From Synechococcus sp. A15-28 (GTDB lineage: Bacteria; Cyanobacteriota; Cyanobacteriia; PCC-6307; Cyanobiaceae), in NCBI RefSeq assembly GCF_014280175.1, contig NZ_CP047931.1:2280001-2312000 (forward strand): DNA of 32,000 nt. The letters run 5' to 3'. The notes below the pieces were generated by a model. The model had not been told where the DNA came from. It saw only the letters and a list, made by a program, of their open reading frames with translations, and did not search any database. The position numbers were made by a program, and so were the translations under genes. Below, in pieces: positions 4,885 through 21,368 of this stretch (position 1 is its first letter; each line of letters opens with the position of its first letter).

Positions 4885-4905
4885 AGCGGGATCGAGGGGA
4901 GCTGT

Positions 4906-5694: not shown

Positions 5695-6353
5695 GGCAGA
5701 GAAACAAGCAGATCGATCAGGGCCTGGCGGGTGGGGGGATGCTCCAGCAGAGGAGGCAATCCACCAGCTTCGCTCAATGCCTCCGTCATGCGGTTCGGGG
5801 CGAGGGTTAACGGGAGTGGGCGGGCGCAGGGATTGCGCTGCTGATACTTGGGCCAGGCATCAAAGGCAACCAATGGCAAGGCCAGGCGAGAGGAGAGCAT
5901 CGCGAGGAAGCGATCCGCCACTCCCGGGCGCAGGGGGTGATGCACCAGCACGGCATCACGGCGCTCAGACACCGGCAGTGCTGAGATCACCGCGTTCCAC
6001 CAGGTGATCCAGGAGCCCAGAAAGGGAAGCAAACGCACGCTGGCCCCGGCGGCATGAAGCCTGTTGCGAATCGCCGGCACGTCCGTTCGGGCATGCGCTC
6101 CAGGCAACAGCAGCAACGGAACAATCCAAGAGGGTTGGAGAAGCGCCGACACGGGTTGTTCAGCCGTCAGCACCTCCAGCTGAACGGGCGCCGATCGCCG
6201 CTGGGCCAGGAGATCCGGCAGGGAGGCCAAGCAGTCGGGAACGACACCGCCACTACGGCCATGCACCACCAGATGCAACCCTTGACGCCCCCGATCGGAA
6301 GCGTCATTCCGTAGCAATGGCCACGGATCAAAAAAAGAGCTATCTGATGTCAT
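5691..6353 (-). CDS. CbiX/SirB-like sirohydrochlorin chelatase (putative)
   Basis: The ORF is 5691..6398. I prefer the ATG at 6353 (MTSDSS...). Two CbiX-like half-domains are visible (LHLVVHGRSGG ... LLLLPGAHARTDVP ... VLVHHPLRPG). The stop overlaps the cobA start by 4 nt. Confidence 0.5.
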   Translation of the reverse strand: MTSDSSFFDPWPLLRNDASDRGRQGLHLVVHGRSGGVVPDCLASLPDLLAQRRSAPVQLEVLTAEQPVSALLQPSWIVPLLLLPGAHARTDVPAIRNRLHAAGASVRLLPFLGSWITWWNAVISALPVSERRDAVLVHHPLRPGVADRFLAMLSSRLALPLVAFDAWPKYQQRNPCARPLPLTLAPNRMTEALSEAGGLPPLLEHPPTRQALIDLLVSLP

Positions 6354-6362
6354 CGAGAAGTA

Positions 6363-6680
6363 ATGACCTGGGGTAAGTACATGGCACCTCGCCAACAAAA
6401 CGAAAGTGCATCATTGGAAAGTCGTTTCTACCGAGCACAGACACGTCGGCGCTTTGACCTAAGCTCTACATTAATTGAATTTAAGAGTCCCAGTATGCGC
6501 AAAAGGGCAAAGCCGTACGACAAGAGTTACAGACGGCAATACGAGCGGAATCGTAATTCCATCAACAGAACAACTTTTGAGTACGAACTAGAAAAGGACG
6601 TAGCCGCTTTGAAGACGGTTTGGCAAATGATCAGCTCGGGAGCTGCCCGCATGCTGAACAGAGTTTTACATCAGATTTAA
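6363..6680 (+). CDS. hypothetical small, highly basic protein
   Basis: 105-codon ORF sitting exactly at the left compositional junction. It is Arg/Lys-rich (RRRF, RKRAKPYDKSYRRQYERNR). I recognise no family. The only coding evidence is ORF length. Confidence 0.25.
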   Translation: MTWGKYMAPRQQNESASLESRFYRAQTRRRFDLSSTLIEFKSPSMRKRAKPYDKSYRRQYERNRNSINRTTFEYELEKDVAALKTVWQMISSGAARMLNRVLHQI

Positions 6681-6913
6681 ATCTATAAAATGAATAGCAT
6701 AGATCGCACAGGAAAAAGAATATAAAATCAACAGGGAAGCTGGGAGTCTAAAAAACCAACATTGTGCTAATATATTTTTTAAGTAGCTCGAGAAATCGAA
6801 GGTTACTTCACTATCGCACGCTTTCATTATTACGTAGCGACAAAGGTCCCCGGGCCGATTAAACTGATCTACTACATTTTTTGATCGATCAGTCCGCCCT
6901 ATTTTCATGAATC

Positions 6914-8455
6914 ATGACCATCAAAAACCAAGTCAACCCCTACTTCGCAGAAAAAAAAATGAATAAGATTGAAAAAAGTAAGTTGGAAAAAGATGGGCTT
7001 TTAGTAGGAAGCGAAATCGAAAAGTTTGCAAAAATTGGGTGGGAAAATATGGATGAAACCGATTTAAAACTCCGTCTGAAATGGTATGGAATGTTCTGGC
7101 GTCCGAAAACACCCGGAAAATTCATGCTAAGACTTAGAATACCAAATGGTGTATTGACATTCAATCAAATACGAGTTGTAGCTTCAATAGTTGAACGTTA
7201 TGGAGAAAATGGAAGCTGCGACATCACCACAAGGCAAAACCTGCAACTTAGAGGAATACTATTATGCGATCTTCCCGAGATCCTTAGAAGACTGCGTGAA
7301 GCCGGACTAACTAGCATCCAGTCGGGCTTTGATAATCCACGAAACGTAACCGGCAATCCACTCGCAGGAATAGATCCGAACGAAATCGTCGATACGAGAC
7401 CTTACACAACTAAATTGCAGAACTTTCTCACAAATAATTGTGAGGGAAATTCGGAATATTCCAACCTACCGAGAAAATGGAACACAGCAGTCGCAGGGTC
7501 TAAAGACAATTTCCTTCTTCACAACGACATAGTGTTTCATCCCGTTGAGAATAACGGCGTGATGGGTTTTAGCATCTGGATTGGAGGGATTTTATCTCCA
7601 CAGATGAACGCATATGCATTTCCCATGAATGTATGGGTATTACCTGACGAGATCTGCAACATTTTGGATACTGTGATTCGTCTCTGGAGAGACAATGGAG
7701 AAAGAGAAAAGAGAACCAAGGGACGTTTCCGCATGTATCTCGATGAGATAGGGCACGAGGAATTCCGCAGCCAAGTGGAAAAACTGTACGGAACACTCAC
7801 TCCCGATCCAGGCTCAATATTCGAAAACTCTCCACGCTCTCACTTCGGCATTAATCAGCAGAAACAAGCCGGACTTTATTTTGCTGGCATACACGTGCCG
7901 GTCGGTCGCCTCACGGCAGAGGATCTACAAGATATCGCAACAGCGAGTCTCAAATATGGAAATGGAGAAATTAGACTCACAGAAGACCAAAATATAATTA
8001 TCACAGGTCTTACGAGTGAAAAAGTTGAAGAATTAAAGACTGATACATTATTGCAGCGTTTCCCCCTAGCACCTAGCAATATTTCAGCAGGAACAGTGTC
8101 CTGCACGGGAAATACGTACTGTAGTTTTGCGCTTACCAACACTAAAGACCAAGCCTTAAAAGCAGCAAAGGAACTTGACGAGGAGTTGAATCTACCTGAA
8201 GAGATAAAAGTTCACTGGACTGGCTGTCCAAATACATGTGGACAGGCTTATATGGGAGCAATAGGTTTAACAGGTACAAAGGCTAAAAATGCTGAAGGAG
8301 TAATGGGTGAAGGCTACACAATGACTATTGGTGGTTCACAGGGTCGCAACCCAACTATTGGTCAAATCTATCGCAAAGCTATACCTGCGGCTGAAATCAA
8401 AACAGCCCTTAAGGAAGTACTTATTTCAAAATTTGGAGCTACAGAAAAGAAATAA
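6914..8455 (+). CDS. nirA: ferredoxin-nitrite reductase
   Basis: 513 aa with the N-terminal KDGL...EIEKFAKIGWENMDETD..RLKWYGMFWRPKTPGKFMLRLRIPNG block. The siroheme/4Fe-4S cysteine clusters SCTGNTYCSFA and TGCPNTCGQ are present. An alternative start lies at M16 (6959). Confidence 0.95.
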   Translation: MTIKNQVNPYFAEKKMNKIEKSKLEKDGLLVGSEIEKFAKIGWENMDETDLKLRLKWYGMFWRPKTPGKFMLRLRIPNGVLTFNQIRVVASIVERYGENGSCDITTRQNLQLRGILLCDLPEILRRLREAGLTSIQSGFDNPRNVTGNPLAGIDPNEIVDTRPYTTKLQNFLTNNCEGNSEYSNLPRKWNTAVAGSKDNFLLHNDIVFHPVENNGVMGFSIWIGGILSPQMNAYAFPMNVWVLPDEICNILDTVIRLWRDNGEREKRTKGRFRMYLDEIGHEEFRSQVEKLYGTLTPDPGSIFENSPRSHFGINQQKQAGLYFAGIHVPVGRLTAEDLQDIATASLKYGNGEIRLTEDQNIIITGLTSEKVEELKTDTLLQRFPLAPSNISAGTVSCTGNTYCSFALTNTKDQALKAAKELDEELNLPEEIKVHWTGCPNTCGQAYMGAIGLTGTKAKNAEGVMGEGYTMTIGGSQGRNPTIGQIYRKAIPAAEIKTALKEVLISKFGATEKK

Positions 8456-8569
8456 TCATTTTATAAGAAATAAAACAAGTTATAAAGCAAAGTTGATCAA
8501 CAGAGAAGAGTAAAGATAATATTGCAAAATTAAAAGAATTGCAATAATTAGAGTATAGAAAAAAAGATC

Positions 8570-9502
8570 ATGCTAGGGTTAAAAGGTATAACAAAGAAAG
8601 TATCGAACTTAAATCAGATGGAGAATCTATATCACATTAGAGAAAGATTCTCAATTATTCATAATAATAAGATAATAGGAATACAGATGAAATGGGAAGG
8701 TAAAAGAGAAAAGTCTCCGATGCTAATGCTTCCGGCCTTAAGTACAATTTTAAATAGCGATGAATGGCAACATTTTAAAGCAATAGTGACAGATAAATAC
8801 CAATTAATAACAATCGATTGGCCTGGATTCGGCGAAAGTGATAAAATAGATATACACTACAGTGGAACAGTATTACAAGAAACACTAAAAAAGGCTATCA
8901 AAGTAATACAGAGTAAAAATTACAGAAAGCTAACTATAATTGCAGCTGGTCATAGTGCCTCAGTTGTACTTACACTAAAAGACAAATACATCAATACGAT
9001 AAAACAAATTGTGCTAATTCCACCAACATGGAGAGGTCCACTTCCAAGTATGACAGGATGGTCACCTAAGAGGCTAAATATCATAAATGAAATAGTAAGG
9101 CTTCCTATCATTGGTCCAATGCTATACTTCATAAATACAACAAAAGTAATTATAAGATTTATGATGAAAAGGCATGTATGGCTAAATAAGAATGACCTTG
9201 ATAATGATAAAATACGAAAACTTCAGGTATTATCTCGACAGAAGGGAGCACGATACGCAAGCGCAGCATTCGTAACAGGGAGATTAGATATAGATAATAA
9301 TAACAAGTGGTGGATATCAAACACAAATATAGTTAAAGAAATGTCTACTCTTGTTATACCGAAGGATTCACCAAAAAGATCATTATCAGAGATGGAAGCA
9401 CTCTCAGAGAGCATTAAAGATGTTTTATACATTAGAAGTAGGCTAGGATGCACGAAGAATTCGGAGAAGAAATCGCGAAGAGATTATTCTACTAAATTGT
9501 AA
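8570..9502 (+). CDS. alpha/beta-hydrolase fold protein, C-terminus possibly frameshifted
   Basis: DWPGFGESD and the nucleophile-elbow-like AAGHSAS are present. The last ~18 residues (GCTKNSEKKSRRDYSTKL) look non-native, while the adjacent frame at 9448-9495 encodes MHEEFGEEIAKRLFY*. Confidence 0.65.
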   Translation: MLGLKGITKKVSNLNQMENLYHIRERFSIIHNNKIIGIQMKWEGKREKSPMLMLPALSTILNSDEWQHFKAIVTDKYQLITIDWPGFGESDKIDIHYSGTVLQETLKKAIKVIQSKNYRKLTIIAAGHSASVVLTLKDKYINTIKQIVLIPPTWRGPLPSMTGWSPKRLNIINEIVRLPIIGPMLYFINTTKVIIRFMMKRHVWLNKNDLDNDKIRKLQVLSRQKGARYASAAFVTGRLDIDNNNKWWISNTNIVKEMSTLVIPKDSPKRSLSEMEALSESIKDVLYIRSRLGCTKNSEKKSRRDYSTKL

Positions 9503-10359
9503 GCACGAGAAAATATCAAGGAAAAAAGGAAGGCAAAGAATTGAAAGATTACAATTGAAGGACCTGAAGGTAGATTAAAGAAACCTGATAAGATAAGCCC
9601 AAACAGAGCACACATACCACCCAGTACCATAGAAAAAACAATATAAGAACTAAACTTACGCGAAATTAGTCTACCAGCGCATGCAGGTATTACAACGAAA
9701 GCACTTATAAGCAATACACCAACAGACTTAATTGAAACAGATACAACAATACCCAATAAAATGATGAAAGCAAGTTTGTGGAATCTTGTGTTAATACCAA
9801 TAGAGCCAGCCAAATCCTCATTAAGAGTTAAAAGAACATGAGAACGAAGACTAAAGACAAGGTAGATAATAGAAACAATAAAAAGGATCAATGTAATATA
9901 TATATCTGATGCTGTAATACCAAGAATATCTCCAAAAAGCAACTGCTTAATGCTACCACTATAAGAGTTGATTTTACTTAAGGCAAGAACAGCTGCTGCT
10001 AGAGAGCTAGAATATACGATATTCAATAGTGCGTCGGTAGGCAAAGAACTGCGCTCAACTAGATTATTTACAAGAAATGCAAATATAATGGCAAAAGGAA
10101 TAAGAACAAAAGTAGGATTCACATTTAAAAGGATACCTAGAGTTATACCGAGCAAGGCAGAATGCCCTAATGCATCACTAAAAAAAGCAAGTTGTCGGAG
10201 TACAGCAAAAGAACCTATAAGCCCTCCTAAAGAACCAGTTAAAAAGCCACCAATTAATGCGCGGTGAATAAATGGCTCATCAAATAACTCAAAAAAAGTT
10301 GATAAATCACCCACGACATTGATGCTGATAAGAAACAATATTGGGCCCATAGAGGACAC
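9484..10359 (-). CDS. znuB: metal (Zn/Mn-type) ABC transporter permease, ZnuB-like
   Basis: 291 aa and polytopic. ABC-3 family features include FIHRALIGGFLTGSLGGLIGSFAVLRQLAFFSDALGHSALLG. The start is uncertain because the ORF overlaps the znuC 3' end by about 50 nt. The 3' end overlaps the convergent hydrolase by 19 nt. Confidence 0.85.
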   Translation of the reverse strand: MSSMGPILFLISINVVGDLSTFFELFDEPFIHRALIGGFLTGSLGGLIGSFAVLRQLAFFSDALGHSALLGITLGILLNVNPTFVLIPFAIIFAFLVNNLVERSSLPTDALLNIVYSSSLAAAVLALSKINSYSGSIKQLLFGDILGITASDIYITLILFIVSIIYLVFSLRSHVLLTLNEDLAGSIGINTRFHKLAFIILLGIVVSVSIKSVGVLLISAFVVIPACAGRLISRKFSSYIVFSMVLGGMCALFGLILSGFFNLPSGPSIVIFQFFAFLFSLIFSRAYNLVE

Positions 10360-11074
10360 TTAATCTTTCGGAAGTCAATGCAAGATTAGGTACACCTCGG
10401 CAGCACAAACGTCTATTTAAACCAAGTACTTGATCGCTACTACGGAGAACCATATCAATATCGTGAGATATATGGAGGACAGTCCAACCTTCCTGCCGAC
10501 GCAATTCAAATAACATTTTTTGAAAACGTTGAGTTGAAGGTATATCTAGACCAGCCTGAACTTCGTCCAAAACAAGAAGATCCCTCGGACGTACGATACA
10601 AAATGCAAGCATAACTCGCTTCAGTTCACCGCCAGAAAGTTCAGTAAGAAGACGTCGTCTTAAATTAAAAGTATCGGTTCTTTCCAAAGATCGATGAACT
10701 AAAATCTTAGTACGGGGGTCCCGCATGCGTAGAAAGGAGGAACTATTACTAAGTCCAAGTTGCACGAACTCAAATACGGAGAGAGGAAACTGACCCTGAA
10801 AAGAAAAATTCTGTGGAATATAAGAAATTCGCTCGCGTATGGATTTCGGTAGATACCCAGCTTTATTCATTTTGGTGCCCATAATATTGATGTCACCTGA
10901 GACGCGCGGAATAAGACCCAACAAGGAGGCAACTAAGGAACTTTTACCAGCACCATTAGGGCCAACTAAAGCTGTATCACTTTCAGCTAATAATTCAAAA
11001 GAAACATCATCTACAACAACATTGGCACCCCTTCTTACAGTAAGATTCTTAACAGAAGCAATTGGATATGACAT
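10307..11074 (-). CDS. znuC: metal ABC transporter ATP-binding protein, ZnuC-like
   Basis: Walker A is GPNGAGKSSL, the ABC signature is LSGGELKRV and Walker B is LLVLDEVQAGLD. 255 aa. It lies 3 nt downstream of znuA. Confidence 0.9.
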   Translation of the reverse strand: MSYPIASVKNLTVRRGANVVVDDVSFELLAESDTALVGPNGAGKSSLVASLLGLIPRVSGDINIMGTKMNKAGYLPKSIRERISYIPQNFSFQGQFPLSVFEFVQLGLSNSSSFLRMRDPRTKILVHRSLERTDTFNLRRRLLTELSGGELKRVMLAFCIVRPRDLLVLDEVQAGLDIPSTQRFQKMLFELRRQEGWTVLHISHDIDMVLRSSDQVLGLNRRLCCRGVPNLALTSERLSVLYGPNIVSYQHQCRG

Positions 11075-11077
11075 AGT

Positions 11078-11989
11078 TTAACCACCAAGAGAGAGAAGAA
11101 GATTGGACAAGTTATCCCGCATAAGATCAAAATAGAGAGACTCGTCATACACAAAATCCTGTGAAATAGTTTCAATAGGATTGAATAGTGCTATTTTAAT
11201 ATTAAGATCACGTGCCAACGAATTGAAAGAATTGCTTCCATCTTGAGGCTCAGTTAAAAGAGCCTTTAAATCGGAATCTCGAACAAGATTCGAAACTCGC
11301 TGTAAATCAGCAGGGCTTGGATTGATATCTGGCAGATCAACTAAGTATTCAGCTTTTAATTGATATCGTTCAGCAAAATATGGTGCAAAGTCATGATAAG
11401 CGATAAATGATTTGCCCTGATAAGGCTCCAACTTGGATAAAATTTCAGCATGCAATGCGAGCAAGTTATCCACATAAGCTAAGGCATTTGAAGTATAGAC
11501 CTCACTACAAGCAGGGTTTAAATCCACAAGAGCATCTTTAATAGTCTCTACCTGGCTAATAGCACGTATAGGATCTAGCCATATATGAGGATTAGGATCA
11601 GAATAAGAATCCGCGTTAGAGATATCAGTAGAAATAGTCTTGATGCCAACACTAGTGTCAACAACGGATAATGTTGTACTCGCTGCTGAAGAGATTAGCC
11701 TGTCTAAAAAATTCTCCATTCCCAAGCCATTAATAAAAAATACATCAGCCTTGCCAATAGATAGGATGTCCTTAGGGGTTGATTGAAAATCGTGTGGTCC
11801 AATATTTGTGGGGATTAAAGCTTTGACATCTCCGCATTCACCGGCTACTGCCCTTGCAAATAGTGTTATCGGAAGGAATGAGGTCATAATGGAAATCTTT
11901 TTAGACCCCTCAGGAGGCGTTGTGAGGGAGCCGCAAGAAACCAAAAAGATGGATGCTAGCGAGCAACTAACCCATTTAGTGAAGCGCAT
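11078..11989 (-). CDS. znuA: periplasmic metal-binding lipoprotein, ZnuA/TroA (cluster A-I) family
   Basis: Lipoprotein signal with lipobox (SIFLVSC|GS). Metal-ligand His contexts are GPHDFQ, NPHIWLDP and AYHDFAPYF. No His-rich loop is visible, so the Zn versus Mn call rests mainly on the COG0523 neighbour. Confidence 0.8.
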   Translation of the reverse strand: MRFTKWVSCSLASIFLVSCGSLTTPPEGSKKISIMTSFLPITLFARAVAGECGDVKALIPTNIGPHDFQSTPKDILSIGKADVFFINGLGMENFLDRLISSAASTTLSVVDTSVGIKTISTDISNADSYSDPNPHIWLDPIRAISQVETIKDALVDLNPACSEVYTSNALAYVDNLLALHAEILSKLEPYQGKSFIAYHDFAPYFAERYQLKAEYLVDLPDINPSPADLQRVSNLVRDSDLKALLTEPQDGSNSFNSLARDLNIKIALFNPIETISQDFVYDESLYFDLMRDNLSNLLLSLGG

Positions 11990-12019
11990 CTAGTAGGAGA
12001 AGCGAAGTCAAATACGATA

Positions 12020-12058
12020 CGAAAAAACAAAGATCTTTATGAATCACCGAAAAAACAA
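12020..12058. repeat. two direct copies of CGAAAAAACAA in the znuA / COG0523 divergent intergenic region
   Basis: The identical 11-mer occurs at 12020-12030 and 12048-12058, 28 nt apart start to start. It is A-tract rich, and its function is unknown. Confidence 0.9.
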
Positions 12059-12109
12059 GGCGATATAAGCTGCCCGGGATTAGTATAGTTGTTGAGCATC
12101 CATCTAGTA

Positions 12110-13492
12110 ATGAAAGAAAAGCGCAAGGTTCCTGTCACCATACTTACTGGCTACCTTGGGGCAGGGAAAACCACACTTTTAAACAAGATCTTGAGAGAAG
12201 AGCACGGAAAAAAAATTGCAGTCATAGAGAACGAATACGGCGAGGTTGGAATTGATCAAGGACTCGTCATTAACGCAGACGAAGAGGTCTTTGAAATGTC
12301 TAATGGTTGCATTTGTTGCACGGTAAGAGGTGATCTGATAAGAGTCCTAGGCAATCTAATGAAACGTAGGGACAAATTTGATTACGTTTTAGTTGAAACG
12401 ACAGGTCTCGCTGACCCAGGGCCGGTAGCACAAACTTTTTTTATGGATGATGAAGTTAGAGATGAATTTACTCTTGATGGAATAGTGACGTTAGTAGATT
12501 CTGCACACATTAATCAACAATTGGAACATAGCACTGAAAGTGCAGAGCAGGTCGCCTTCGCGGACGTACTCATACTCAATAAAACTGACTTAGTTTCCAA
12601 AAACGAAGTCAATGTACTTGAATCACGCCTTCGAGATATGAACAAAATGGCCCGTATACTGCGTGCAAAAGAAGCCGGGGTCGATGTTGAAGATGTCTTG
12701 AATCTTGGTGCATTTGATCTCCAGCAAACATTAGATAGACGTCCGACATTTCTCGAACCTGAATATCCGTTTGAGTGGACCGGAGTATATGAACTTAAGA
12801 AAGGAAACTACAGGCTTTATTTTGATGATGGACCTGATCCAACAATGCTAATAACAGCAATAAAATGTGACAGTTCAAATGAAAAAGATCTTGATGAATA
12901 CGCCGAAGATTGTGTAAGAATATTTTCAAAAGAACCTAAAAAACTTTTACCAGGTGAAGCAATAAGCTTTAACGAGGTTATTGAATTACAATTACAAGAT
13001 GCTGGTCAAAAGCTCTTTGAATTATATATAGACAATAAATCAACTATAGGTCTCTTCACCCAACATACGGCAGAAGAATTTAATATAAGACTAGATGAAA
13101 ATAAAGATGATCAGCCCAGAGATAAGGAATTTAGGGATATAACTAAGGGGATCGATACAAGGATCGAAAGAATATGGGTAGCAGAACACGAACATGACGA
13201 TGAAGTTGGATCTATTGCCCTAGAAAGCCTTGGCAACATTAATCCAGATAAATTAAACGATTGGATTTCAAAACTTCTCCGAGAAAAAGGAGTAGATATA
13301 TTTAGAACCAAAGGGTTTATCAGCTACGCTGAAGAATCTAGAAAAATTGTATTTCAAGGGGTCCATATGTTATTTACTGCAGAACCTGGAAGCGAATGGG
13401 GAAACGAGCCCAGGAAGAATCAACTTGTATTCATAGGCCGAAATTTAGACGAGGATGCATTAAGGACTGAGTTTCAAAAATGTCTAGCATGA
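12110..13492 (+). CDS. COG0523-family (CobW/YjiA/ZigA-like) G3E GTPase, putative zinc metallochaperone
   Basis: P-loop GYLGAGKTTLLN, the CxCC metal motif GCICCTV, ETTGLADP and NKTDL are present. There is a His/acidic patch AEHEHDDE and a CobW_C-like tail (DIFRTKGF...VFQGVH...LVFIGRNLD). I prefer the ATG at 12110 over the TTG at 12089. Confidence 0.9.
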   Translation: MKEKRKVPVTILTGYLGAGKTTLLNKILREEHGKKIAVIENEYGEVGIDQGLVINADEEVFEMSNGCICCTVRGDLIRVLGNLMKRRDKFDYVLVETTGLADPGPVAQTFFMDDEVRDEFTLDGIVTLVDSAHINQQLEHSTESAEQVAFADVLILNKTDLVSKNEVNVLESRLRDMNKMARILRAKEAGVDVEDVLNLGAFDLQQTLDRRPTFLEPEYPFEWTGVYELKKGNYRLYFDDGPDPTMLITAIKCDSSNEKDLDEYAEDCVRIFSKEPKKLLPGEAISFNEVIELQLQDAGQKLFELYIDNKSTIGLFTQHTAEEFNIRLDENKDDQPRDKEFRDITKGIDTRIERIWVAEHEHDDEVGSIALESLGNINPDKLNDWISKLLREKGVDIFRTKGFISYAEESRKIVFQGVHMLFTAEPGSEWGNEPRKNQLVFIGRNLDEDALRTEFQKCLA

Positions 13493-14547
13493 AAAGATCT
13501 AACAGCATTTTTCAAGGTGGATGGTACAGTGAAATTAATGAATACGTAATAGCTTGTGACTGGGCACTCGAAAATAAGAATATTATTGCTGCAGATATAA
13601 CAGGCAATATTTACTCTTTTGATGCAAAAACAGGGAAGTTACTATACATGCAAAAAGACACTCACAACAAATCACTCTTAGATCTAGCAGTAAATCCCAA
13701 TGGAAGCATATATGCAACTTGTGGCCAAAACGGCAAGGTTGATATTAATGCGGCTTCTGATGGAAGCTTACTAAGTTCAAGCTCATTAGGCAATGATTGG
13801 ATTGATAATATACAATGGACAAATAACGGAAGATTATTAGCCGGTAGCATTGGAAAGTTCGTACATGTGATTGATTCGTCAGGAAATCAATTATGGCGTT
13901 CCGATGAACTGACAAGTACTGTGTCAGCAATTTATTGGTCAAACAATAGCGAATTAGCGATATCAAGCTACGGTCAAGTGATTATTTATGATGTGAAAAC
14001 CAATAAAGTTTGTCAAAGATTTGAGTGGAAGGGATCTCTTATATCATTGGCATTGAGCCCCAACGGGGAGATTGTAGCTTGTGGGAGTCAAGACAATTCA
14101 GTACATTTTTGGCGACGAACTAATGGTAAAGATGCAGAAATGACTGGCTATCCTGGCAAACCTAAAGATATTGTGTTTGATATTACGGGTCAATATTTAG
14201 CTACAGGGGGAAGCCCCCAAGTTACAGTATGGAACTTTAAAAATAAGGGTCCTGAGGGAACAATTCCGGGGCAACTTATACTTCATAATGAGCCTATAAG
14301 TTGCCTAAGCTTTGCCAACAGTAGCTCGTTATTAGCATCTGGTGCAAAAGATGGGTCAATTGCAATTTGGAAATTAGATAAAAATGGAGATGGTGAGCCC
14401 ATTGACAAGATATCCATCAACTCGACGCCGACACGACTAAGATGGAAAAAAGATGATAATGCCTTTTTAGCTGCTAGCGACTCGGGGAAATTATTCTGCT
14501 GGGATATACCGTCTAAAAATGGAGAAGGATTCGGATTCAAAAAGTAA
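13480..14547 (+). CDS. WD40-repeat beta-propeller protein
   Basis: 355 aa with repeated WD-like units (GSQDNSVHFWR, GAKDGSIAIWK, ASDSGKLFCWD, GGSPQVTVWN). The start at 13480 overlaps the COG0523 gene by 13 nt. The alternative ATG at 13489 forms an ATGA overlap with its stop. Confidence 0.85.
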   Translation: MSSMKRSNSIFQGGWYSEINEYVIACDWALENKNIIAADITGNIYSFDAKTGKLLYMQKDTHNKSLLDLAVNPNGSIYATCGQNGKVDINAASDGSLLSSSSLGNDWIDNIQWTNNGRLLAGSIGKFVHVIDSSGNQLWRSDELTSTVSAIYWSNNSELAISSYGQVIIYDVKTNKVCQRFEWKGSLISLALSPNGEIVACGSQDNSVHFWRRTNGKDAEMTGYPGKPKDIVFDITGQYLATGGSPQVTVWNFKNKGPEGTIPGQLILHNEPISCLSFANSSSLLASGAKDGSIAIWKLDKNGDGEPIDKISINSTPTRLRWKKDDNAFLAASDSGKLFCWDIPSKNGEGFGFKK

Positions 14548-14887
14548 ATATATAACCGTTCGATATAATCCTTGAGGATCAGAGGAAAGTTGATTAAGAA
14601 ATTAAAAACTAATTCAAATGCGACTGGCCGGACTGTACAATGGTGTAAATCAATACAATACAAGTTATGTATCAAACTCAATGGCTGGCTTCCGTCACTG
14701 ACTCACTGCGGAAGCGTTATCTAAAGTCTCAAAAAGAAAATGACAAAAAAGCAACTACAGAATTGTTTAAGGAAGCGGTTTACTTAGGTATTAACATACG
14801 CAATTTTGATTAAGATTTTTAATGGGCCGACAATAGAGTCCTTTATAATAACATGTATGTTTATAATATAGAAACAACCATAGCCCA

Positions 14888-15217
14888 TTGCTAATGAATG
14901 AAGAATCAGCAAAAAGTAACGAAGACCAAGATATTTTTTCACAATTAATGAAAGAAGTAAGTACTCTTGCTTTATTAAAAGAATCAGGTGCAAGTATTAT
15001 TCAAGGAAAGATTTTAATAATTATCGTTGGAATTGAAAAGGATGGAGAATTGTTAAAGGGCAAAGAGATACAACCTAAACATTGCAATATAAGCAATGAA
15101 GAAGAATTCCAAGAATTTATTAAAGGTAATTACAAAAATGTTGATACGTTATATGTAAGATACTTTAGACCCGGAGACATAGAATTAAGTGAAATTACGA
15201 AATACATAATAAAATAA
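14888..15217 (+). CDS. hypothetical protein
   Basis: A 109-codon ORF in DNA of about 30% GC, where stop codons are frequent, so its length alone argues for coding. I recognise no family. It is convergent with cynD. Confidence 0.4.
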   Translation: MLMNEESAKSNEDQDIFSQLMKEVSTLALLKESGASIIQGKILIIIVGIEKDGELLKGKEIQPKHCNISNEEEFQEFIKGNYKNVDTLYVRYFRPGDIELSEITKYIIK

Positions 15218-15257
15218 AAGAGCTACTTTAGGCAAGTTAAATAAACACAAAGTGTAA

Positions 15258-16124
15258 CTAAGAAGACTCTTCAACTGCTCTTGTTTCGCGAAGGAGATGA
15301 TCCTCAAGTTGGAGTTTGATATCAATGAAGAGAGAATCTTTTTCTATAATATTACGGATTCTGGGCCTTGGCAAAGGGACATCTATAATATCTGCAATAT
15401 TTGCAGATGGTCCACTAGACATAAGTACAATTTTGTCAGACATTAACAATGCTTCTTCAATACTATGTGTAATTAAAAGTGCTGTAACTCTATTTTTCTC
15501 CCATATTTTTAACACTTCTTCTTGCAAATAGGACCTTGTAAGGGCATCAAGGGCTCCAAAAGGCTCGTCCATAAGTAACATAGACGGATTAATAGACAAA
15601 GCTCGTGCAATAGCAACTCTCTGCTTCATACCACCTGAAATTTGCTTTGGAAACTTGTTCATTGAGCGTTCTAACCCAACCATATTCAAAAAGTATCTGG
15701 CTTTTTCACGCCTCTGTGAGGTACTTAGTTCTGGACAGGCCGTCTCCAAGGCATATTCGATGTTGCCTGCGGCGCTTAGCCAGGGCATAAGTGCGTAGTT
15801 CTGAAAAATTATACCTCTGTCTGGACCAGGGCCAACCAGTGGCTTGCCTTCGATGAAAATTTCACCAGACGTGAAATCATCTAATCCTGCTAAAAGATTC
15901 AAAAGCGTTGATTTACCACAACCCGAAGGGCCAATCAAAGAGACAAAAGTGTTCTTTTTAATATCGAGATTTATACCTTCAAGAGCAATATAGTTCTCAG
16001 TTTTTTTGTTAAAAAGAGAAGGTCGAGAAATTGGGAAAACTTTTCTTAGATTTACAATTTCAACATGAGATTCATGTTCCTTGTAAGAAATGGAATCAGC
16101 TGAACTTGAACCAGATTTAGTCAT
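15258..16124 (-). CDS. cynD: cyanate/nitrate/sulfonate-type ABC transporter ATP-binding protein (CynD-like)
   Basis: Walker A is GPSGCGKSTLLN, the signature is ISGGMKQRVAIARAL and Walker B is LLMDEPFGALD. The start forms an ATGA overlap with the cynB stop. Confidence 0.85.
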   Translation of the reverse strand: MTKSGSSSADSISYKEHESHVEIVNLRKVFPISRPSLFNKKTENYIALEGINLDIKKNTFVSLIGPSGCGKSTLLNLLAGLDDFTSGEIFIEGKPLVGPGPDRGIIFQNYALMPWLSAAGNIEYALETACPELSTSQRREKARYFLNMVGLERSMNKFPKQISGGMKQRVAIARALSINPSMLLMDEPFGALDALTRSYLQEEVLKIWEKNRVTALLITHSIEEALLMSDKIVLMSSGPSANIADIIDVPLPRPRIRNIIEKDSLFIDIKLQLEDHLLRETRAVEESS

Positions 16125-16900
16125 GAATCGTAATTGAATCGAAGTTGCAAAATCTCAAAGATTTGATCCAGTACATAACCAGTTATTCCTATGATTATAA
16201 TTGCTACAAATATGTTAGCTACATATAAATTGTTCCATTCATTCCATATAAAATATCCGATACCCGTGCCTAGAAGCATTTCAGCAGCCACTATTACAAG
16301 CCATGCTGTACCCATTGAAATTCTCATGCCAGCTAAAATATTTGGCATTACTGCAGGTAAGATGACTTTGGTAATGGTATTAGTTTTGGAAGCACCTAAT
16401 GACTTTGCAACTTTTAAGACATCAGAATCTACGGATTGAACACCAATTGCGGTATTAATTAAAGTCGGCCAGATGCTTGTAATAAAAATGACAAAAATAC
16501 CGGTAACTTCTGAATTTCTAAATACGAATAAGCCAATGGGCAGCCAGGCAAGCGGTGAGACCGGTTTAAGTAGTTGTACATAAGGATCAACAGAAGACTT
16601 AACGGTTTTGGAAACACCAACAAAGAGACCGACTGGAATTGCAACAACCATTGCAAGTGTATAACCAATTAGGACTCTTCTTAAGCTTATAAGTAAATTA
16701 AAACCAATACCTAAATCGTTAGGACCGTTATCAAAAAATGGATCTGATATCCACCATATTAATTCCTGAAATGTCTTTAAAGCCCCTGGAAAATTAGGAA
16801 TTAAATTGGCACTGGCTATAATTTCCCAGACAACGCAAAAAGAAAGGAGACTAGATCCTGAGATCAGTAACGATCTCAGGATTGTTGACTTTGTAGACAT
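16121..16900 (-). CDS. cynB: cyanate/nitrate-type ABC transporter permease (CynB-like)
   Basis: 259 aa and polytopic, with a BPD-type permease core (SVDSDVLKVAKSLGASKTNTITKVILPAVMPNILAGMRISMGTAW). Confidence 0.85.
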   Translation of the reverse strand: MSTKSTILRSLLISGSSLLSFCVVWEIIASANLIPNFPGALKTFQELIWWISDPFFDNGPNDLGIGFNLLISLRRVLIGYTLAMVVAIPVGLFVGVSKTVKSSVDPYVQLLKPVSPLAWLPIGLFVFRNSEVTGIFVIFITSIWPTLINTAIGVQSVDSDVLKVAKSLGASKTNTITKVILPAVMPNILAGMRISMGTAWLVIVAAEMLLGTGIGYFIWNEWNNLYVANIFVAIIIIGITGYVLDQIFEILQLRFNYDS

Positions 16901-16905
16901 ACAGT

Positions 16906-18585
16906 TTATACACCGTCCCTATCAATTTGTTTGCTGACATAGCCCAACGGATCAGTAGGGTCAAAGCTGTCGTATGCAAGCTTCTCAGTCTTGAACGAAC
17001 GGGAGGGAGGATTGAAACCCAGCTCCCTTTCCAAAGATTGAGCTTCATTTGTTAGGAATATTGCGGCACTATTAGCATTAAAGTCACCAGCTTTAATTGC
17101 GTCAGCAGCTCCTCCAAGGTCCCATCGTACAAGTTGAGACTGAATCCAATGTGAAAAGCTTTGCCAAGGATAAGGTTTAAAATCTATTCTGTCAGGAACA
17201 TTTTTCTTATTGCCCAAGCCGTCATCGAACTTGCCTGTCAAAACAGCTTCAACGACTTTAGTCGGTTGGTTTAGGAAGGCGCGGCCAGAAATATATTTCG
17301 CAATTTCAGATCTGTTAGTAGGATTTGTTGCATAATTCGCAGCTTCAATAATAGATTTATTGATGGCTTTAAAAGTATTTGGATGCTTGTTAATCCAGGG
17401 TTCACCCGCAGCGAAAGCGCAGCATGGATGACCAACCCAAAGATCCTTAGTTAGAAGGTGAATAAAACCAACACCTTCAAACACAGCTCTTTGATTAAAT
17501 GGATCAGGCATCAAATATGCATCGATATCACCTGCAACCATCTGGGCAACACTATCCGGTGGTGGTACAGGGCGAATTTGTACATCCTTGTCAGGATCAA
17601 CTCCACCCTTAGCGAGGTAATATCTAAGTAGTAAATTATGCATCGAGTATGGAAATGGTACTCCGAACACAAAGCCTTTCATATCTGCGGCAGATTTAAC
17701 TGTATCCTTGTGACGATTAGCTACAGTTATTGCTTGTCCGTTGATATTTTCAATACTGGCTAGTTTGACGCTGAATGGAGAAGTTCCCAATCCCAAAGTC
17801 ATAGAGATAGGCATTGGAGCGAGCATGTGATAAGCATCAAGCTCACCTGCAATGGCCGAATCGCGAACAGCTCCCCAACTTGGCATTTTCACAACCTTAC
17901 ATTTCAACCCATTAGATTTATAAAAACCCATAGGTTCTGACATGATTATCGGTGTTGCACATGTAATTGGAATGAATCCAATCTTCAAGTTAGTTTTCTC
18001 TAATTTACCGCCGGCATGACCTGCTGCATGAGCATCTTGAGTATCTAAGCCTGCGCTATTGGCAATTGTTATCATGGCCGCACCAGCAGCCAATCCTTTG
18101 AGAAATGACCTTCTTCCAAAAGGGGAACTAGAGTGAATAGAGGCAAAGAATTCACCTGCTTGAGGACCAAAGGCTGCTGCCATCGCTTGATCTAATCCAC
18201 CGGCTTCTTCAGCTAGTGCCCGCAAAAGCTTTTCCTTGGCAGGATCACCTTGAGAAGCGTTCTTATAAAAAAGAATCTCTCTAAGCTCCGCTGATGAAAC
18301 AGCCTCAGCGACTTCTACAGCATCGGCTTTAATCAAACCCATTTTATAAAAATCATCCATCAAATCCTCAGGATCTGAAGGCATATCTTCGGTAAAATCT
18401 TGATGATCTGGACTAAATGGCCGGCACTCTACACAGAAGCAAAACAAACCATGACCGGTTTGTGGTTGAAAGGAAGGAGAATTTGATGTAGCTTCTGTAG
18501 TGCTATTACATTGAAGCTGTGACTTAAGGATCTCAGCGGCAGTCTGAGTTGTTGTTGATGCATGCGAGGTGAAAAGATTCGACAC
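16906..18585 (-). CDS. cynA: cyanate-type ABC transporter substrate-binding protein (CynA/NrtA family) with a long N-terminal extension
   Basis: NrtA/CmpA-like body (KIGFIPITCATPI..., HPCCAFAAGEPW). The twin-arginine motif GRRSFLKGLAAGAA sits at residues 157-170 of the ORF. The start is uncertain: GTG 18585, ATG 18384, ATG 18360/18342 or ATG 18183. Confidence 0.85.
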   Translation of the reverse strand: MSNLFTSHASTTTQTAAEILKSQLQCNSTTEATSNSPSFQPQTGHGLFCFCVECRPFSPDHQDFTEDMPSDPEDLMDDFYKMGLIKADAVEVAEAVSSAELREILFYKNASQGDPAKEKLLRALAEEAGGLDQAMAAAFGPQAGEFFASIHSSSPFGRRSFLKGLAAGAAMITIANSAGLDTQDAHAAGHAGGKLEKTNLKIGFIPITCATPIIMSEPMGFYKSNGLKCKVVKMPSWGAVRDSAIAGELDAYHMLAPMPISMTLGLGTSPFSVKLASIENINGQAITVANRHKDTVKSAADMKGFVFGVPFPYSMHNLLLRYYLAKGGVDPDKDVQIRPVPPPDSVAQMVAGDIDAYLMPDPFNQRAVFEGVGFIHLLTKDLWVGHPCCAFAAGEPWINKHPNTFKAINKSIIEAANYATNPTNRSEIAKYISGRAFLNQPTKVVEAVLTGKFDDGLGNKKNVPDRIDFKPYPWQSFSHWIQSQLVRWDLGGAADAIKAGDFNANSAAIFLTNEAQSLERELGFNPPSRSFKTEKLAYDSFDPTDPLGYVSKQIDRDGV

Positions 18586-18607
18586 AAATCGAGTTCATAG
18601 TTCTACA

Positions 18608-18650
18608 TTTATAGTTGGAAAGCGAACGCGGATGTTGTATCAGGTGATAC
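18608..18650 (-). promoter_or_regulatory. NtcA-type activated promoter upstream of cynA
   Basis: A perfect GTA-N8-TAC (GTATCAGGTGATAC) lies at 18637-18650. On the minus strand, 23 nt downstream, is TATAAA (18613-18608). The predicted transcription start is about 18600, just upstream of the cynA ORF. Confidence 0.55.
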
Positions 18651-18869
18651 TCATAGCAAAATTTGTCAGAATTGTCTCACTTGCTACATTAATCGGCTGT
18701 TCAATTTATTAGAGAGAAAGGTAGTTCTCCAGATAACATTTGTTGGATGCCCTAAACAGTATGCGCTTAAACTTAAAATTATACTTATTGCAACAATGAG
18801 TGAATTTTTATTATTGGAAATTTATTATATTTGAGAGAAGATCTGCTGCGCAGATCAATCGCCTTAAGA

Positions 18870-19073
18870 CTAAAGGGTATCTTCTTTAGGATCTTTGTCC
18901 TCCAAGACAACTACATCAATTTCTTTCTTAAATTCACCAGAGGCGGATCTAAAACCGCCCAAATATTTAGCCAAATATTTTCCTACTTTGGGCAAACTAT
19001 TAGGCCCTAAGACTAATAAAAAAATAAGGCATATAATTAGTAGCTCAGGAAAACCTAATCCAAAAAAGCTCAT
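18870..19073 (-). CDS. tatA: TatA/TatE-family twin-arginine translocase subunit
   Basis: 67 aa: MSFFGLGFPELLIICLIFLLVLGPNSLPKVGKYLAKYLGGFRSASGEFKKE... This matches the TatA architecture of a short N-tail, one TM helix, a hinge Gly-Pro, an amphipathic helix and an acidic tail. Confidence 0.8.
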   Translation of the reverse strand: MSFFGLGFPELLIICLIFLLVLGPNSLPKVGKYLAKYLGGFRSASGEFKKEIDVVVLEDKDPKEDTL

Positions 19074-19481
19074 TTGTGATTTAACGATAATTTATAATAG
19101 CTGTGCCGGTAAGTTCATCAAGTTGATTTTAGACATATTTAAGATTACCAATTTTGCTTTTGTAAGATTACTATCGAACGGTATACGTGCATAATGTAAA
19201 GTCATGCAGTAAACAATATAATTAATTGATTTACAGGCAATCAATTAGCTGGCACATTCTCCTAATATTCGGCTTCAAAAGTATATGATCGTTTGTGGTA
19301 TTCTCTTAATTCATTGCTTATTTAACCACTCAGACTTCAAAATAGTATAAGGATATATAACTTTATCTCAAATGCCTTATTACAATCAAAAAAGAGTCGA
19401 GTTCTGGTTGGTACAGACGTGAAAGTAAAATACCGACAGGTTGATAGAAAATCGTAATTGTTAACCGACAACGAATTCTTA

Positions 19482-19495
19482 GTAGAACTGGATAC
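19482..19495. promoter_or_regulatory. NtcA-box-like palindrome in the AT-rich spacer
   Basis: Perfect GTAGAACTGGATAC (GTA-N8-TAC). The -10 candidates TAGATA and TAAATT lie 24-28 nt downstream on the + strand, which is not ideal spacing. A chance occurrence is plausible at this base composition. Confidence 0.3.
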
Positions 19496-19584
19496 CATTT
19501 AATTACAATTAATGAGGTTTAGATAAATTCAGCATACATCATTTGTCTAGAGCGAGTAGTAATCATTTACCTATGTAACCATAA

Positions 19585-19743
19585 ATGAAAAATCATACGC
19601 TCAGATTCAGCAAGCCTAAAATAGGGAAAATGATATGTGATATATTCATACGATACCAAGACTATATGGTAGAATTGTTGTGTTCGTTTCTACACAATGA
19701 AGAATTACATCTTGAAACCAAAAAAACTACTTACGCTAAATAA
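19585..19743 (+). CDS. 52-codon small ORF immediately upstream of the HEAT-like gene (not in the supplied track)
   Basis: Read by hand: MKNHTLRFSKPKIGKMICDIFIRYQDYMVELLCSFLHNEELHLETKKTTYAK*. The TAA at 19741-19743 is followed by 2 nt and then the ATG at 19746, in a different frame. Confidence 0.2.
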   Translation: MKNHTLRFSKPKIGKMICDIFIRYQDYMVELLCSFLHNEELHLETKKTTYAK

Positions 19744-19745
19744 CC

Positions 19746-20471
19746 ATGAAGGATACTGAATCAGATCTGTGGGAGAGACTCGGCAATTCACGTAAGGTTC
19801 CCTTGGATCCTTGTTGGTTAGAAAATGTCTATTCGCCCAACCTTGCTACTGATCTGCGGCTAGCTCTCTGTGAAAAAATGGGTATGCTTGCAGATCGTGG
19901 CTGGCCTACTATTGAACATTTACTGCAACGCTATGGCGACATGCCTGATTTGGTGATGGCCGCAGGACTCTGCCATCAAATTGAGGCCCGTGAATGGTTA
20001 CTGGAATTGCTCAAGCGCAGCAATTATAATGAAAAACTTCAACTAACTGCAGTTCAATCGCTTGGTTGTTGGGGTGCTGAAGTTCCCGAAGCAATCGTCA
20101 CTCATTGCTTACATCATCCTGGTCAAAATTTTCGACTCGCTGGTCTTCAATTGCTGGAATTTCGCTCACATCTTCTAACAGATCACCAACTATTGGATTA
20201 CTGTAATGAAGCACTCAACGATTTTCGGGATTCAGTTGTTATTGCAGCAATCCGTATAATTCAGCGTCGTGACAGTAAAGAAATCTGCAAACAATTATTT
20301 TGTTTGTGTCAAGAAGACTCTGACGAAGTCGCATTTACCGCACTCCGTGCTCTTAGCTGTATAGCATCCGAAAATAGCAAAAAATATCTACTAAAACTTA
20401 GTAAAACCCTAAAAAGTGAATCAAGACGATTATTAGCCCAAAAAAAACTTAACGAACAGTTTAGATCTTAA
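19746..20471 (+). CDS. HEAT/ARM-like helical repeat protein, function unknown
   Basis: 241 aa and all-helical in appearance, with repeating units of about 30-35 aa (e.g. LQLTAVQSLGCWG, FRLAGLQLLEF, SVVIAAIRIIQR, EVAFTALRALSCI). This resembles PBS-lyase-type HEAT repeats. Confidence 0.55.
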   Translation: MKDTESDLWERLGNSRKVPLDPCWLENVYSPNLATDLRLALCEKMGMLADRGWPTIEHLLQRYGDMPDLVMAAGLCHQIEAREWLLELLKRSNYNEKLQLTAVQSLGCWGAEVPEAIVTHCLHHPGQNFRLAGLQLLEFRSHLLTDHQLLDYCNEALNDFRDSVVIAAIRIIQRRDSKEICKQLFCLCQEDSDEVAFTALRALSCIASENSKKYLLKLSKTLKSESRRLLAQKKLNEQFRS

Positions 20472-20515
20472 AGCCCAATAACAATTGGACTTTAGATAAG
20501 TCGAAAGCCTAAGTT

Positions 20516-20950
20516 TTACCATTTCTTGTAGGGTAAAAACTTACCACACATTACAATTTTGACACGATCACCTTTAGGGTCCTCAACTTTATCGACATCT
20601 ATAGTGAAATCAATAGCACTCATAATTCCATCTCCGAAATGCTCCTGAATTACATCTTTCAGAGGCATGCCATACACCTGCATGATCTCGTAAAAACGAT
20701 AAATCAAAGGATCAGTGGGAATCACTGGCTCAAGGCTTCCCTTGGTTGGGTACTCCTGCAGTGCCGCTGTTGTTTCTGCATCAAGGGATAACAAACCAGC
20801 AAGTTTCTCGGCCTCCTCCTTCGAGGCCGTCGCTTGGCCATAGAACAAAGATGCAACCCAAACCTCATCGAGACCAATAGCCGCCTCGAGATCAGCAAAA
20901 CTCATACCTTTGGCCTTTTTGGCGGCCATCAACGTGGCTGTTAAAGACAT
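20516..20950 (-). CDS. cynS: cyanase (cyanate hydratase)
   Basis: Near-invariant cyanase C-terminal domain: [72 protein letters not shown] prefer the ATG at 20950 ([15 protein letters not shown]...) over the one at 20980. Confidence 0.95.
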
Positions 20951-21105
20951 AACGGTTAAGCGAACAATGAACTGCCTCAAAGCAGCATTCCAGATCGGAA
21001 CGTCTCAGCAGCATCGTAAGTGTCACCCAGCAAATGCACTCAAAATGCAGCAACGGCGACCAAATCAATTCATCGTTTTGATGCATCGTATACAACAGAC
21101 ACGTT

Positions 21106-21153
21106 CCCGTGACGCTGCAACCCCGTGACGCTGCAACCCCGTGACGCTGCAAC
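21106..21153. repeat. perfect 3 x 16-bp direct tandem repeat (CCCGTGACGCTGCAAC)
   Basis: Units lie at 21106-21121, 21122-21137 and 21138-21153 and are identical. They are followed by A7 (21154-21160) and an AT-rich stretch. The repeat sits at the right compositional junction, upstream of cynS. Confidence 0.95.
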
Positions 21154-21354
21154 AAAAAAATCATATTATAATTATGTGGGTCAGTTCTTTCGGGAAATCT
21201 CGTCATTGTTGTTCAGCCAACAATTGCAAGCAAAACCGGCCATCAACCTCGCCCTCGAGCGTCTGTACTACGCCGATGGTCGTCACAACCCCGACCATCC
21301 CCGGCACGGCAGCTTCGATGGACTGAATGTCCTGCCACAAAGCTAGGACGATTA

Positions 21355-21368
21355 GTATCAATCACTAC
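21355..21368 (+). promoter_or_regulatory. NtcA box upstream of the TrpD2-like gene
   Basis: Perfect GTATCAATCACTAC (GTA-N8-TAC). Its centre is about 58 nt upstream of the GTG start at 21420, which is the right geometry for a class-II activated promoter. The -10 region (about 21389-21396, CTGAACAC) is poor. Confidence 0.4.

Follow-up and report, generated by a model that had tools for sequence, protein, structure and literature searches.

In Prochlorococcus, the nitrite cassette focA-nirA-nirX has been gained, lost and replaced by homologous recombination in its flanks; a cell of the high-light (HL) clade HLVI had acquired a cassette of the low-light (LL) type, and some LLI genomes lack focA and carry a divergent 'Type II' nirA (Berube et al., 2019; PMC6370341). 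For marine Synechococcus, the part of Dore et al. (2020; PMC7522525) that was accessible describes cynABD as the clade III-specific island Syn_GI013 and places strain A15-28 among the clade III strains. In strain WH8102, the genes SYNW2477-2491 were co-upregulated as a region in an array study (PMC2673484), and synw2479-2481 have been described as a putative second ZnuABC that has no Zur box, is not regulated by Zur or zinc, is constitutively expressed and is induced by phosphorus depletion (Mikhaylina et al., 2022; PMC9337993). Here we analyse 32,000 nucleotides (nt) of Synechococcus sp. A15-28 (clade III; NZ_CP047931.1, contig positions 2,280,001-2,312,000; closed isolate genome of 2.34 Mb), referred to below as the window, in which an AT-rich block holds the nitrite/cyanate cassette region in the allelic form of clade III.

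The block appears to correspond to WH8102 SYNW2477-2491 and to contain Syn_GI013: cynABD lies by nirA in a nitrogen cluster, the genes are orthologous to those of WH8102, and the ZnuABC-like genes of the window correspond to synw2479-2481. The island itself is already in the literature and is ordinary in kind. Only cynABD is named as island content in the accessible text of the Syn_GI013 paper, whose main text, supplementary tables aside, makes no statement on AT-shifted nirA, nirX and cynS alleles, on the loss of focA or on breakpoints; nor did we find a statement on the GC content or the donor of the block in the accessible literature. The locus resembles the cassette exchange of Prochlorococcus in that the same functional cassette is affected, the flanks are core genes and loss of focA goes together with a divergent NirA. 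It differs in that the recipient is a GC-rich Synechococcus, the presumed incoming allele is 0.25 off in GC and 11 kb of unrelated transport genes are included.

A sliding GC profile and a maximum-likelihood (ML) three-segment fit gave a GC content of 0.647 for positions 1-6325, 0.387 for 6326-21235 and 0.608 for 21236-32000, and the gain over a one-segment model was 902 log-likelihood units. GC at third codon positions (GC3) is 0.20-0.46 in fourteen block genes versus 0.63-0.80 in flank genes. The left step is sharp (0.66 to 0.47 within ~100 nt), whereas the right step is diffuse and extends across ~21050-21300. We place the block (GC 0.387) at 6331-21235, from the change points and, for its left edge, from alignment. 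With atypical GC (0.39 versus 0.61-0.65), step-like borders and genes of picocyanobacterial types, it is a genuine compositional island. The original prediction, made from the sequence of the window, had put a low-GC block with stepwise edges at 6350-21160. These positions are 25-75 nt off the computed change points and the profile is indeed stepwise, most clearly at 6330. The last ~1.4 kb had been described as intermediate in GC, which is true of cynS (GC 0.45, GC3 0.46) but not of the preceding HEAT-repeat gene (GC3 0.31).

For comparison we used loci and contigs fetched from genome and metagenome collections (L001-L178). A scan of GTDB species genomes with a NirA profile yielded 80 syntenic loci, all from outside clade III. 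In L007 and L015 (WPC1-type) and in L011 the order is moaC-moeA-...-moaE-moaD-cobA-CbiX-like-small ORF-nirA-focA-HEAT(nirX)-cynS-small ORF-trpD-like-GNAT-MFS-ppk-sigma (ORF, open reading frame). The window keeps these elements in identical order except for focA, which was not found anywhere in the window. The AT-rich tract takes in nirA, nirX and cynS, together with the first of the two small ORFs and part of the other. Between nirA and nirX are ~11.3 kb that are present in none of the 80 loci (hyd, znuB-C-A, COG0523, WD40, a 109-amino-acid (aa) ORF, cynD-B-A and tatA), so that focA-nirA-nirX does not exist here as three adjacent genes. The closest relatives outside clade III (L010-L014, L018), which provide the comparison with close relatives that the original prediction had suggested, lack the block; they have a 3.9 kb, GC-normal nirA-focA-nirX-cynS cassette without hyd, znu, COG0523, WD40, cynABD or tatA. 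The block is therefore a divergent, AT-shifted allele of the ancestral small ORF-nirA-focA-nirX-cynS segment and not an insertion of all-new DNA; about a quarter of what had been taken for an inserted block is allelic replacement of genes that are always found at this position.

The left recombination breakpoint could be placed by alignment at 6320-6340, within codons 4-8 of the CbiX-like gene (minus strand). Up to ~6330 the window is ~92% identical to L011, L013 and L018; at the switch the window reads MTSDSSFFDPWP and L011 reads MTSAGMVIDPWP. Beyond 6330 the sequences are barely alignable: homology persists at the beginning of the CbiX-like gene, in the small ORF and in conserved nirA-promoter motifs, but the sequence is strongly diverged and AT-shifted, and the window resembles the low-GC metagenome locus L009. 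On the right, GC changes over inside the conserved small ORF at 21125-21346. Breakpoints inside conserved genes argue for homologous recombination. No patches of the GC-rich allele were seen in nirA or cynS, whose identity to L011 is uniformly 62-83%. The histories of the two flanks differ: nt identity to L011 and L013 is 92% for the left flank (299-6330, moaC to CbiX-like) but no more than 73% for the right flank (21254-28100, trpD-like to sigma). It seems that clade III and an L011-type lineage exchanged the moa-cobA segment, the island edge being the point at which recombination stopped.

Islands borne by integrases, and tycheposons, share with the block a nutrient-acquisition cargo, an atypical composition and a clade-restricted distribution. 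Unlike them, the block has no tRNA target, integrase, att repeats or replication genes, and its integration is allelic, inside conserved genes. The original prediction had already noted the want of mobility genes, and systematic searches bear this out: there is no tRNA in the window, none of the block ORFs tested has a Pfam domain of an integrase, a transposase or a phage, no direct repeat flanks the block, and an Rfam scan of the window returned no family. No close viral contig was found in IMG/VR, where CynA had no match and the NirA profile found nothing above matches of 59-62%. Entry of the block by homologous recombination would account for the absence of integrase, tRNA and repeats.

The block is found throughout clade III. 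Clusters of NirA and CynA at 90% identity include WH8102 (CynA CAE09002), WH8103, RS9915, A18-40, A18-46.1 and A15-24, and WH8103, RS9915 and A18-46.1 are in the NirA cluster. Contig L095 contains the left junction and nearly the whole block at 96.9% nt identity, L177 and L178 have the same gene order at 98-98.5% nt identity, and the right junction recurs in the independent metagenome contigs L001, L002 and L004. The clade-wide presence is thus read from protein clusters and metagenome contigs of ENA, the genome and metagenome scans having returned no clade III locus. Since the same junctions and gene order occur in independent contigs, the block predates the radiation of clade III and is not an assembly artefact. 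All the clade III relatives that were examined share this low-GC block, and the trees of the syntenic genes agree with those of the flanks at the level of subclusters, an outcome that partly matches what the original prediction had named as speaking against its import hypothesis. It indicates that the block is old and largely vertically inherited rather than a recent import.

Neighbour-joining trees and pairwise identities place nirA, nirX and cynS with Synechococcus. The best matches of NirA outside clade III are the low-GC contigs L061 (88%; this contig also matches hyd at 61% and znuB at 80%) and L009 (84%), followed by GC-rich Synechococcus (78-80%) and Prochlorococcus (65-72%; low-GC Prochlorococcus only 65-69%). 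The NirA proteins of the window and L009 group with 100% bootstrap on a long branch nested in the crown of Synechococcus subcluster 5.1. The smallest clade that holds the window and L011 contains no Prochlorococcus NirA in 98-99% of bootstraps and no 5.2/5.3-like sequence in 97-99%, with or without Dayhoff-6 recoding; for CynS and NirX the corresponding clade is free of Prochlorococcus in 95% and 100% of bootstraps. These placements are conservative, because amino-acid convergence driven by AT content would pull the proteins toward Prochlorococcus. As far as these trees can tell, nirA, nirX and cynS at least cannot have been copied recently from Prochlorococcus. The donor of Prochlorococcus-like composition that had originally been proposed is therefore not borne out for these three genes; it retains some weak plausibility only for cynABD. 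The CbiX-like flank gene of L009 has a GC3 of 0.41 (in the 350 nt of flank available), and L009 is suggested by its sequence to be the best hint of the source, a lower-GC Synechococcus-like lineage.

CynA belongs to a marine low-GC clade, beside Prochlorococcus-HL-type CynA (GC3 0.19), with a bootstrap of 78% that falls to 43% after recoding; in no other case was a block protein sister to a Prochlorococcus clade. The HL cynABDS genes (MED4-type) encode the same transporter family and are AT-rich, and their CynA is the nearest outside relative of the block CynA (75% aa and 76% nt identity). A protein divergence of 25% excludes a recent transfer from this source. In the low-GC cynABDS locus L091, as in MED4, the four genes are contiguous, whereas the block cynS is separated from cynABD by tatA and nirX. 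COG0523 and WD40 split off deeply, on a long branch next to the conserved picocyanobacterial znuB-zur-znuC-znuA-COG0523-WD40 cluster, with 68-70% identity to low-GC contigs and 62-65% to GC-rich contigs; judged by sequence, the COG0523-WD40/znu copy of the block looks like a deeply diverged duplicate of this conserved zinc module. In L098 (6095-12438), COG0523-WD40 adjoins a cluster that we read as znuB-zur-znuC-znuA from ORF translations and weak similarity to the block proteins. The next relatives of hyd are Cyanobium proteins (39-41%), and one fetched locus (L096) has its hyd relative in a metal-homeostasis neighbourhood. CynA, COG0523 and WD40 are thus incongruent with the host or deep, and NirA, NirX and CynS fall inside 5.1 on long branches. 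The block is a mosaic of ancestries brought to one composition of ~39% GC, as the original prediction had suspected from the uneven GC of its parts.

The same cassette has been replaced at least once more. In L039 (Synechococcus AG-670-B23) both flanks are 87-93% identical to those of L018 (flank GC 0.60-0.67), but the intervening nirA-focA-nirX-cynS segment (9550-14250) is only 67-79% identical and has a GC of 0.42-0.53. The left breakpoint differs from that of the window, and L039 is an independent replacement of the same cassette. Its NirA groups with that of L030, a mis-binned contig. Across 44 loci, the GC3 of nirA, nirX and cynS minus that of the flank genes has a median of -0.05 and a maximum of +0.03; it is 0.00 in the nearest relatives (L010-L014), -0.17 in L032, -0.26 in L039 and -0.32 in the window. 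Taken together, the GC3 pattern and the L039 replacement indicate that the cassette is a recurrent target of allele replacement, of which the clade III allele is the extreme. A further AT-shifted operon was seen in L090, a 70%-GC Cyanobium-like contig, where cynABDS (10001-13961) has a GC of 0.55-0.66 versus 0.72-0.79 around it; an AT shift against the host may be a wider trait of cyanate genes.

Within clade III the segments of the block differ strongly in divergence. Between the window and L095, nt divergence is 6-7.6% in the left flank, 0.4-1.6% in nirA, znuBC and cynABD, 3-7% in znuA-COG0523-WD40 and 6-9% in hyd. This unevenness implies that segments of the island have re-spread in the clade by recombination or sweeps. 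Substitutions were polarised by taking the majority state of the clade III sequences as ancestral. In the block, 160 GC>AT and 144 AT>GC changes give an equilibrium GC content (GC*) of 0.36 (95% confidence interval (CI) 0.31-0.42) at a current GC of 0.38, and no drift toward host GC was seen in this test. In the flanks, 403 GC>AT and 150 AT>GC changes give a GC* of 0.41 (CI 0.37-0.46) at a current GC of 0.65. An AT-biased recent substitution spectrum is usual in GC-rich bacteria. From the two GC* values, the composition of the island coincides with the apparent mutational equilibrium of the host. Thrift in nitrogen at the protein level was considered and rejected, since side-chain nitrogen per residue is not lower in the block NirA (0.372) than in its GC-rich orthologs (0.348-0.373).

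Direct copying of the block from a low-GC Prochlorococcus of the same synteny would fit its GC of 0.39, which matches Prochlorococcus. By dinucleotide distance, too, the block lies nearer to low-GC Prochlorococcus loci (delta* 48-88) than to the flanks of its host (delta* 128). The closest matches of COG0523 come from low-GC contigs, CynA leans to the HL type as described above, and the Prochlorococcus loci L075 and L080 have the synteny cobA...nirA-nirX...trpD-like-ppk. However, delta* is confounded by GC, and Markov-normalised tetranucleotide profiles at 7 kb are powerless (block halves correlate at 0.22, flank halves at 0.55). Identities to Prochlorococcus are low (33-48% for NirX, in addition to the NirA and CynA values above), and the trees of NirA, NirX and CynS exclude Prochlorococcus although compositional attraction would bias them the other way. 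For these three genes the transfer is largely refuted; for the block as a whole we consider it very unlikely. We hold equally low expectations of a shuttle, in which the cassette would have resided for long on an AT-rich phage or plasmid-like element (~40% GC) before being redelivered to Synechococcus. Such a circulating cassette would account for several diverged AT-rich versions in different hosts, and the GC of the block equals that of cyanomyoviruses infecting WH8102 (Syn9 0.41, S-TIM5 0.40); delta*, with the same dependence on GC, is 61 to S-TIM5. Yet it is 127 to Syn9, the IMG/VR scans described above found no close carrier, the block has no phage or plasmid gene, and 15 kb of transporter operons are unlike known cyanophage auxiliary genes. 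An assembly or binning chimera of Prochlorococcus-like and Synechococcus DNA has practically no chance of being correct. It would explain the bimodal composition, and mis-binned contigs do occur in the data space (L030, L041, L042), but the source is a closed isolate genome, both junctions show homology to the GC-rich loci on either side, and the recurrence of both junctions in independent assemblies from different samples (L001, L002, L004, L095) rules it out. The three mis-binned contigs carry a Synechococcus nitrogen-assimilation cluster under the metagenome-assembled genome (MAG) labels Gammaproteobacteria, Salipiger bermudensis and Flavobacteriales, which looks like binning contamination in public MAGs.

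The alternative that deserves most attention dispenses with a foreign allele: the native cassette, after AT-rich insertions, would have escaped, over its whole length, the force that maintains GC (biased gene conversion or codon selection) and drifted to the mutational equilibrium of the host at ~0.4 GC. NirA, NirX and CynS are indeed 5.1-type proteins on long branches, the GC of the block differs little from its own GC* or from that of recent flank substitutions (0.41-0.48), the search for a low-GC donor genome was negative, and cassette GC3 is below that of the flanks in most Synechococcus loci. With 27% nt divergence between the flanks of different clades, there has also been time enough for synonymous turnover. 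On the other hand, the step at 6330 is a breakpoint of the recombination type and no gradient, GC3 within nirA has no trend by distance from the edge, and the nearest relatives (L010-L014) have no depression at all. A mechanism specific to the region is not known, in L039 the cassette allele was clearly imported (both flanks ~90% identical to L018), and L009 represents a lineage whose flanking gene is also lower in GC. We judge decay in place unlikely, but not so unlikely as to be set aside. A bolder form of this idea, to which we would give slightly less credit still, makes the island a natural reporter of the raw mutational equilibrium of its host, with alleles exempt from the GC-holding force that decayed in place to ~39% under accelerated protein evolution. 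If true, it would be a local, small-scale replay of Prochlorococcus-style genome evolution.

We favour, as the probable course of events though with considerable reserve, the replacement of the nitrite cassette by homologous recombination with an AT-rich allele from a lower-GC picocyanobacterial pool. The 3.9 kb ancestral cassette would have been exchanged for this allele in a clade III ancestor that recombined in its cobA/CbiX-like and trpD-like flanks. The incoming allele would have lacked focA and brought ~11 kb of nutrient-scavenging modules: cynABD with its own tatA, a second ZnuABC-like importer, COG0523 with WD40, and the hydrolase. Its source would be a lower-GC picocyanobacterial gene pool other than Prochlorococcus as known, of which L009-type loci are the nearest sampled relatives. 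Since then, the block has been inherited by all of clade III, with single segments re-spread by intra-clade recombination, and its composition is stable, near the mutational equilibrium of the host.

Several points weigh against replacement by a foreign allele. Recombination in the flanks between genomes of 39% and 62% GC should be inefficient, and the first entry is left unexplained. No low-GC donor genome was found in the protein, genome-contig and metagenome-contig searches, and the low-GC variants that come nearest, L009 and L061, are contigs of just 2.8 and 2.9 kb. The trees were built on simple distances, not by compositionally heterogeneous ML. As GC* is low in the flanks too, the equilibrium test fits a 'foreign but stable' and a 'native and relaxed' block alike. 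The abruptness of the left breakpoint might instead stem from the moa-cobA flank having been imported later, out of an L011-like lineage, and the right breakpoint was placed by composition alone, the right flank having no close relative among the fetched loci.

The genes of the locus were assigned by family scans, named homologs and alignment, and the original calls of NirA, CynABDS, TatA and COG0523 held throughout. At the left edge, the GC-normal cobA and CbiX-like genes (4906-6398, minus strand; 92% nt identity to L011 and L013) serve siroheme synthesis for NirA. They are followed by a small conserved ORF of 105 aa 5' of nirA (6363-6680, plus strand), which by alignment is the AT-shifted ortholog of an 82-aa ORF in other Synechococcus (L007, 9502-9750). 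The ferredoxin-nitrite reductase gene nirA (6914-8455, plus strand; GC 0.42, GC3 0.38) scores 859 bits against NCBIfam NF007125 (cutoff 594), and in the alignment its product retains every invariant Cys and all siroheme motifs. Next to it, hyd (8570-9502, plus strand) encodes an alpha/beta-hydrolase-like protein with weak Pfam matches that is hypervariable in clade III: it has 87% aa identity to its counterpart in L095, against an nt divergence of only 0.4-1.8% in the neighbouring nirA and znuBC, and the database variants are 97, 96, 94, 88, 87, 81, 77 and 61% identical.

A metal ABC transporter is encoded on the minus strand by genes for a ZnuB/AztB-like permease (9484-10359), a ZnuC-like ATPase (10307-11074) and a ZnuA-like substrate-binding lipoprotein (11078-11989). 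The prediction of ZnuABC holds in so far as these are metal-ABC-like genes; all their scores are below the curated NCBIfam cutoffs for ZnuA, ZnuB and ZnuC, and no His-rich loop is visible in the ZnuA-like protein. Zinc specificity is plausible from sequence, and a role as metal importer is likely given the adjoining gene for a COG0523 (CobW/YeiR-like) GTPase metallochaperone (467 aa; 12089-13492, plus strand; below the NCBIfam curated cutoffs). The latter is paired, as in other picocyanobacterial zinc clusters, with a gene for a WD40 beta-propeller protein (13480-14547, plus strand; family scan). ORF comparison shows that a hypothetical protein of 109 aa (14888-15217, plus strand; GC 0.28) is kept in clade III contigs.

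The cyanate ABC transporter genes cynD-cynB-cynA (15258-18585, minus strand) were recognized from precomputed Pfam annotation and named homologs. Directly upstream of cynA, whose product bears a Tat signal with the twin-arginine motif GRRSFLKG, lies tatA (18870-19073, minus strand; 67 aa, Pfam PF02416). In CynA as annotated (16906-18585, 559 aa) the twin-arginine signal is located ~155 residues past the initial GTG. Translation may in truth begin farther downstream; alternatively, the N-terminal extension, which is conserved in clade III and in relatives of 556-561 aa, may have a role of its own. A GTA-N8-TAC palindrome resembling an NtcA box lies at 18637-18650 (plus strand), 52-65 nt upstream of the cynA start. 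The window has three such sites versus 2.2 expected by chance, and only this one is positionally sensible; its position alone makes it a suggestive candidate for an NtcA box. The HEAT-repeat gene identified by Pfam (19746-20471, plus strand) is an AT-shifted ortholog of nirX of the nitrite cassette, named after PMC6370341. The cyanase gene cynS (20516-20980, minus strand; 223 bits versus a cutoff of 150) occupies its ancestral syntenic position, and its product has 92% aa identity to that of L011.

The small conserved ORF that contains the right GC transition (21125-21346, plus strand) was placed by alignment. It is followed in the right flank by a GC-normal gene of the anthranilate-phosphoribosyltransferase family (trpD-like; 21420-22490, plus strand; family scan), whose product has identical copies in A15-28 and six metagenome contigs. 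In the intergenic region between cynS and the trpD-like gene there are three perfect tandem copies of the 16-mer CCCGTGACGCTGCAAC (21106-21153); the clade III contig L001 has a single copy, so the copy number is polymorphic. Elsewhere in the window, three genes between moeA and moaE (1989-3709; 265 aa, 217 aa and an epimerase-like 287 aa) form an accessory insertion in the molybdopterin cluster that is present in only some Synechococcus loci, the first two having no family match. Two more mild GC dips, to 0.53-0.58, were seen at 24500-26750 and 28250-29000. The former lies in ppk (GC at second codon positions 0.36), and the A15-28 Ppk is the sole member of its own 90% cluster; the latter lies around the 5' end of the DAHP synthase gene (28716-29807, minus strand).

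As to function, the block would serve nitrite and cyanate use and metal uptake in an ultra-oligotrophic lineage. NirA would be coupled with the adjoining siroheme synthesis genes, and CynABD and CynS with a dedicated TatA. ATP-driven CynABD probably takes over nitrite import from the lost FocA; CynABD of S. elongatus reportedly transports nitrite as well. All clade III strains represented here by proteins or contigs have a strongly AT-shifted, fast-evolving nirA in the nitrate-assimilation cluster, on which they probably depend, WH8102 not being known to have another nirA.

If the favoured reading is correct, marine Synechococcus exchange alleles of their nutrient cassettes through plain homologous recombination, with at least two independent replacements at the same site, and allele swapping of this kind would explain how such islands come to exist without mobility genes. 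Clade III would have traded the FocA channel for an ATP-driven cyanate (possibly nitrite) transporter and extra metal uptake, which fits life in nitrogen- and phosphorus-starved gyres and the Mediterranean. A 15 kb tract that has stayed 25 GC points below its host across the radiation of a clade also bears on the debate over how high GC is maintained in bacteria.

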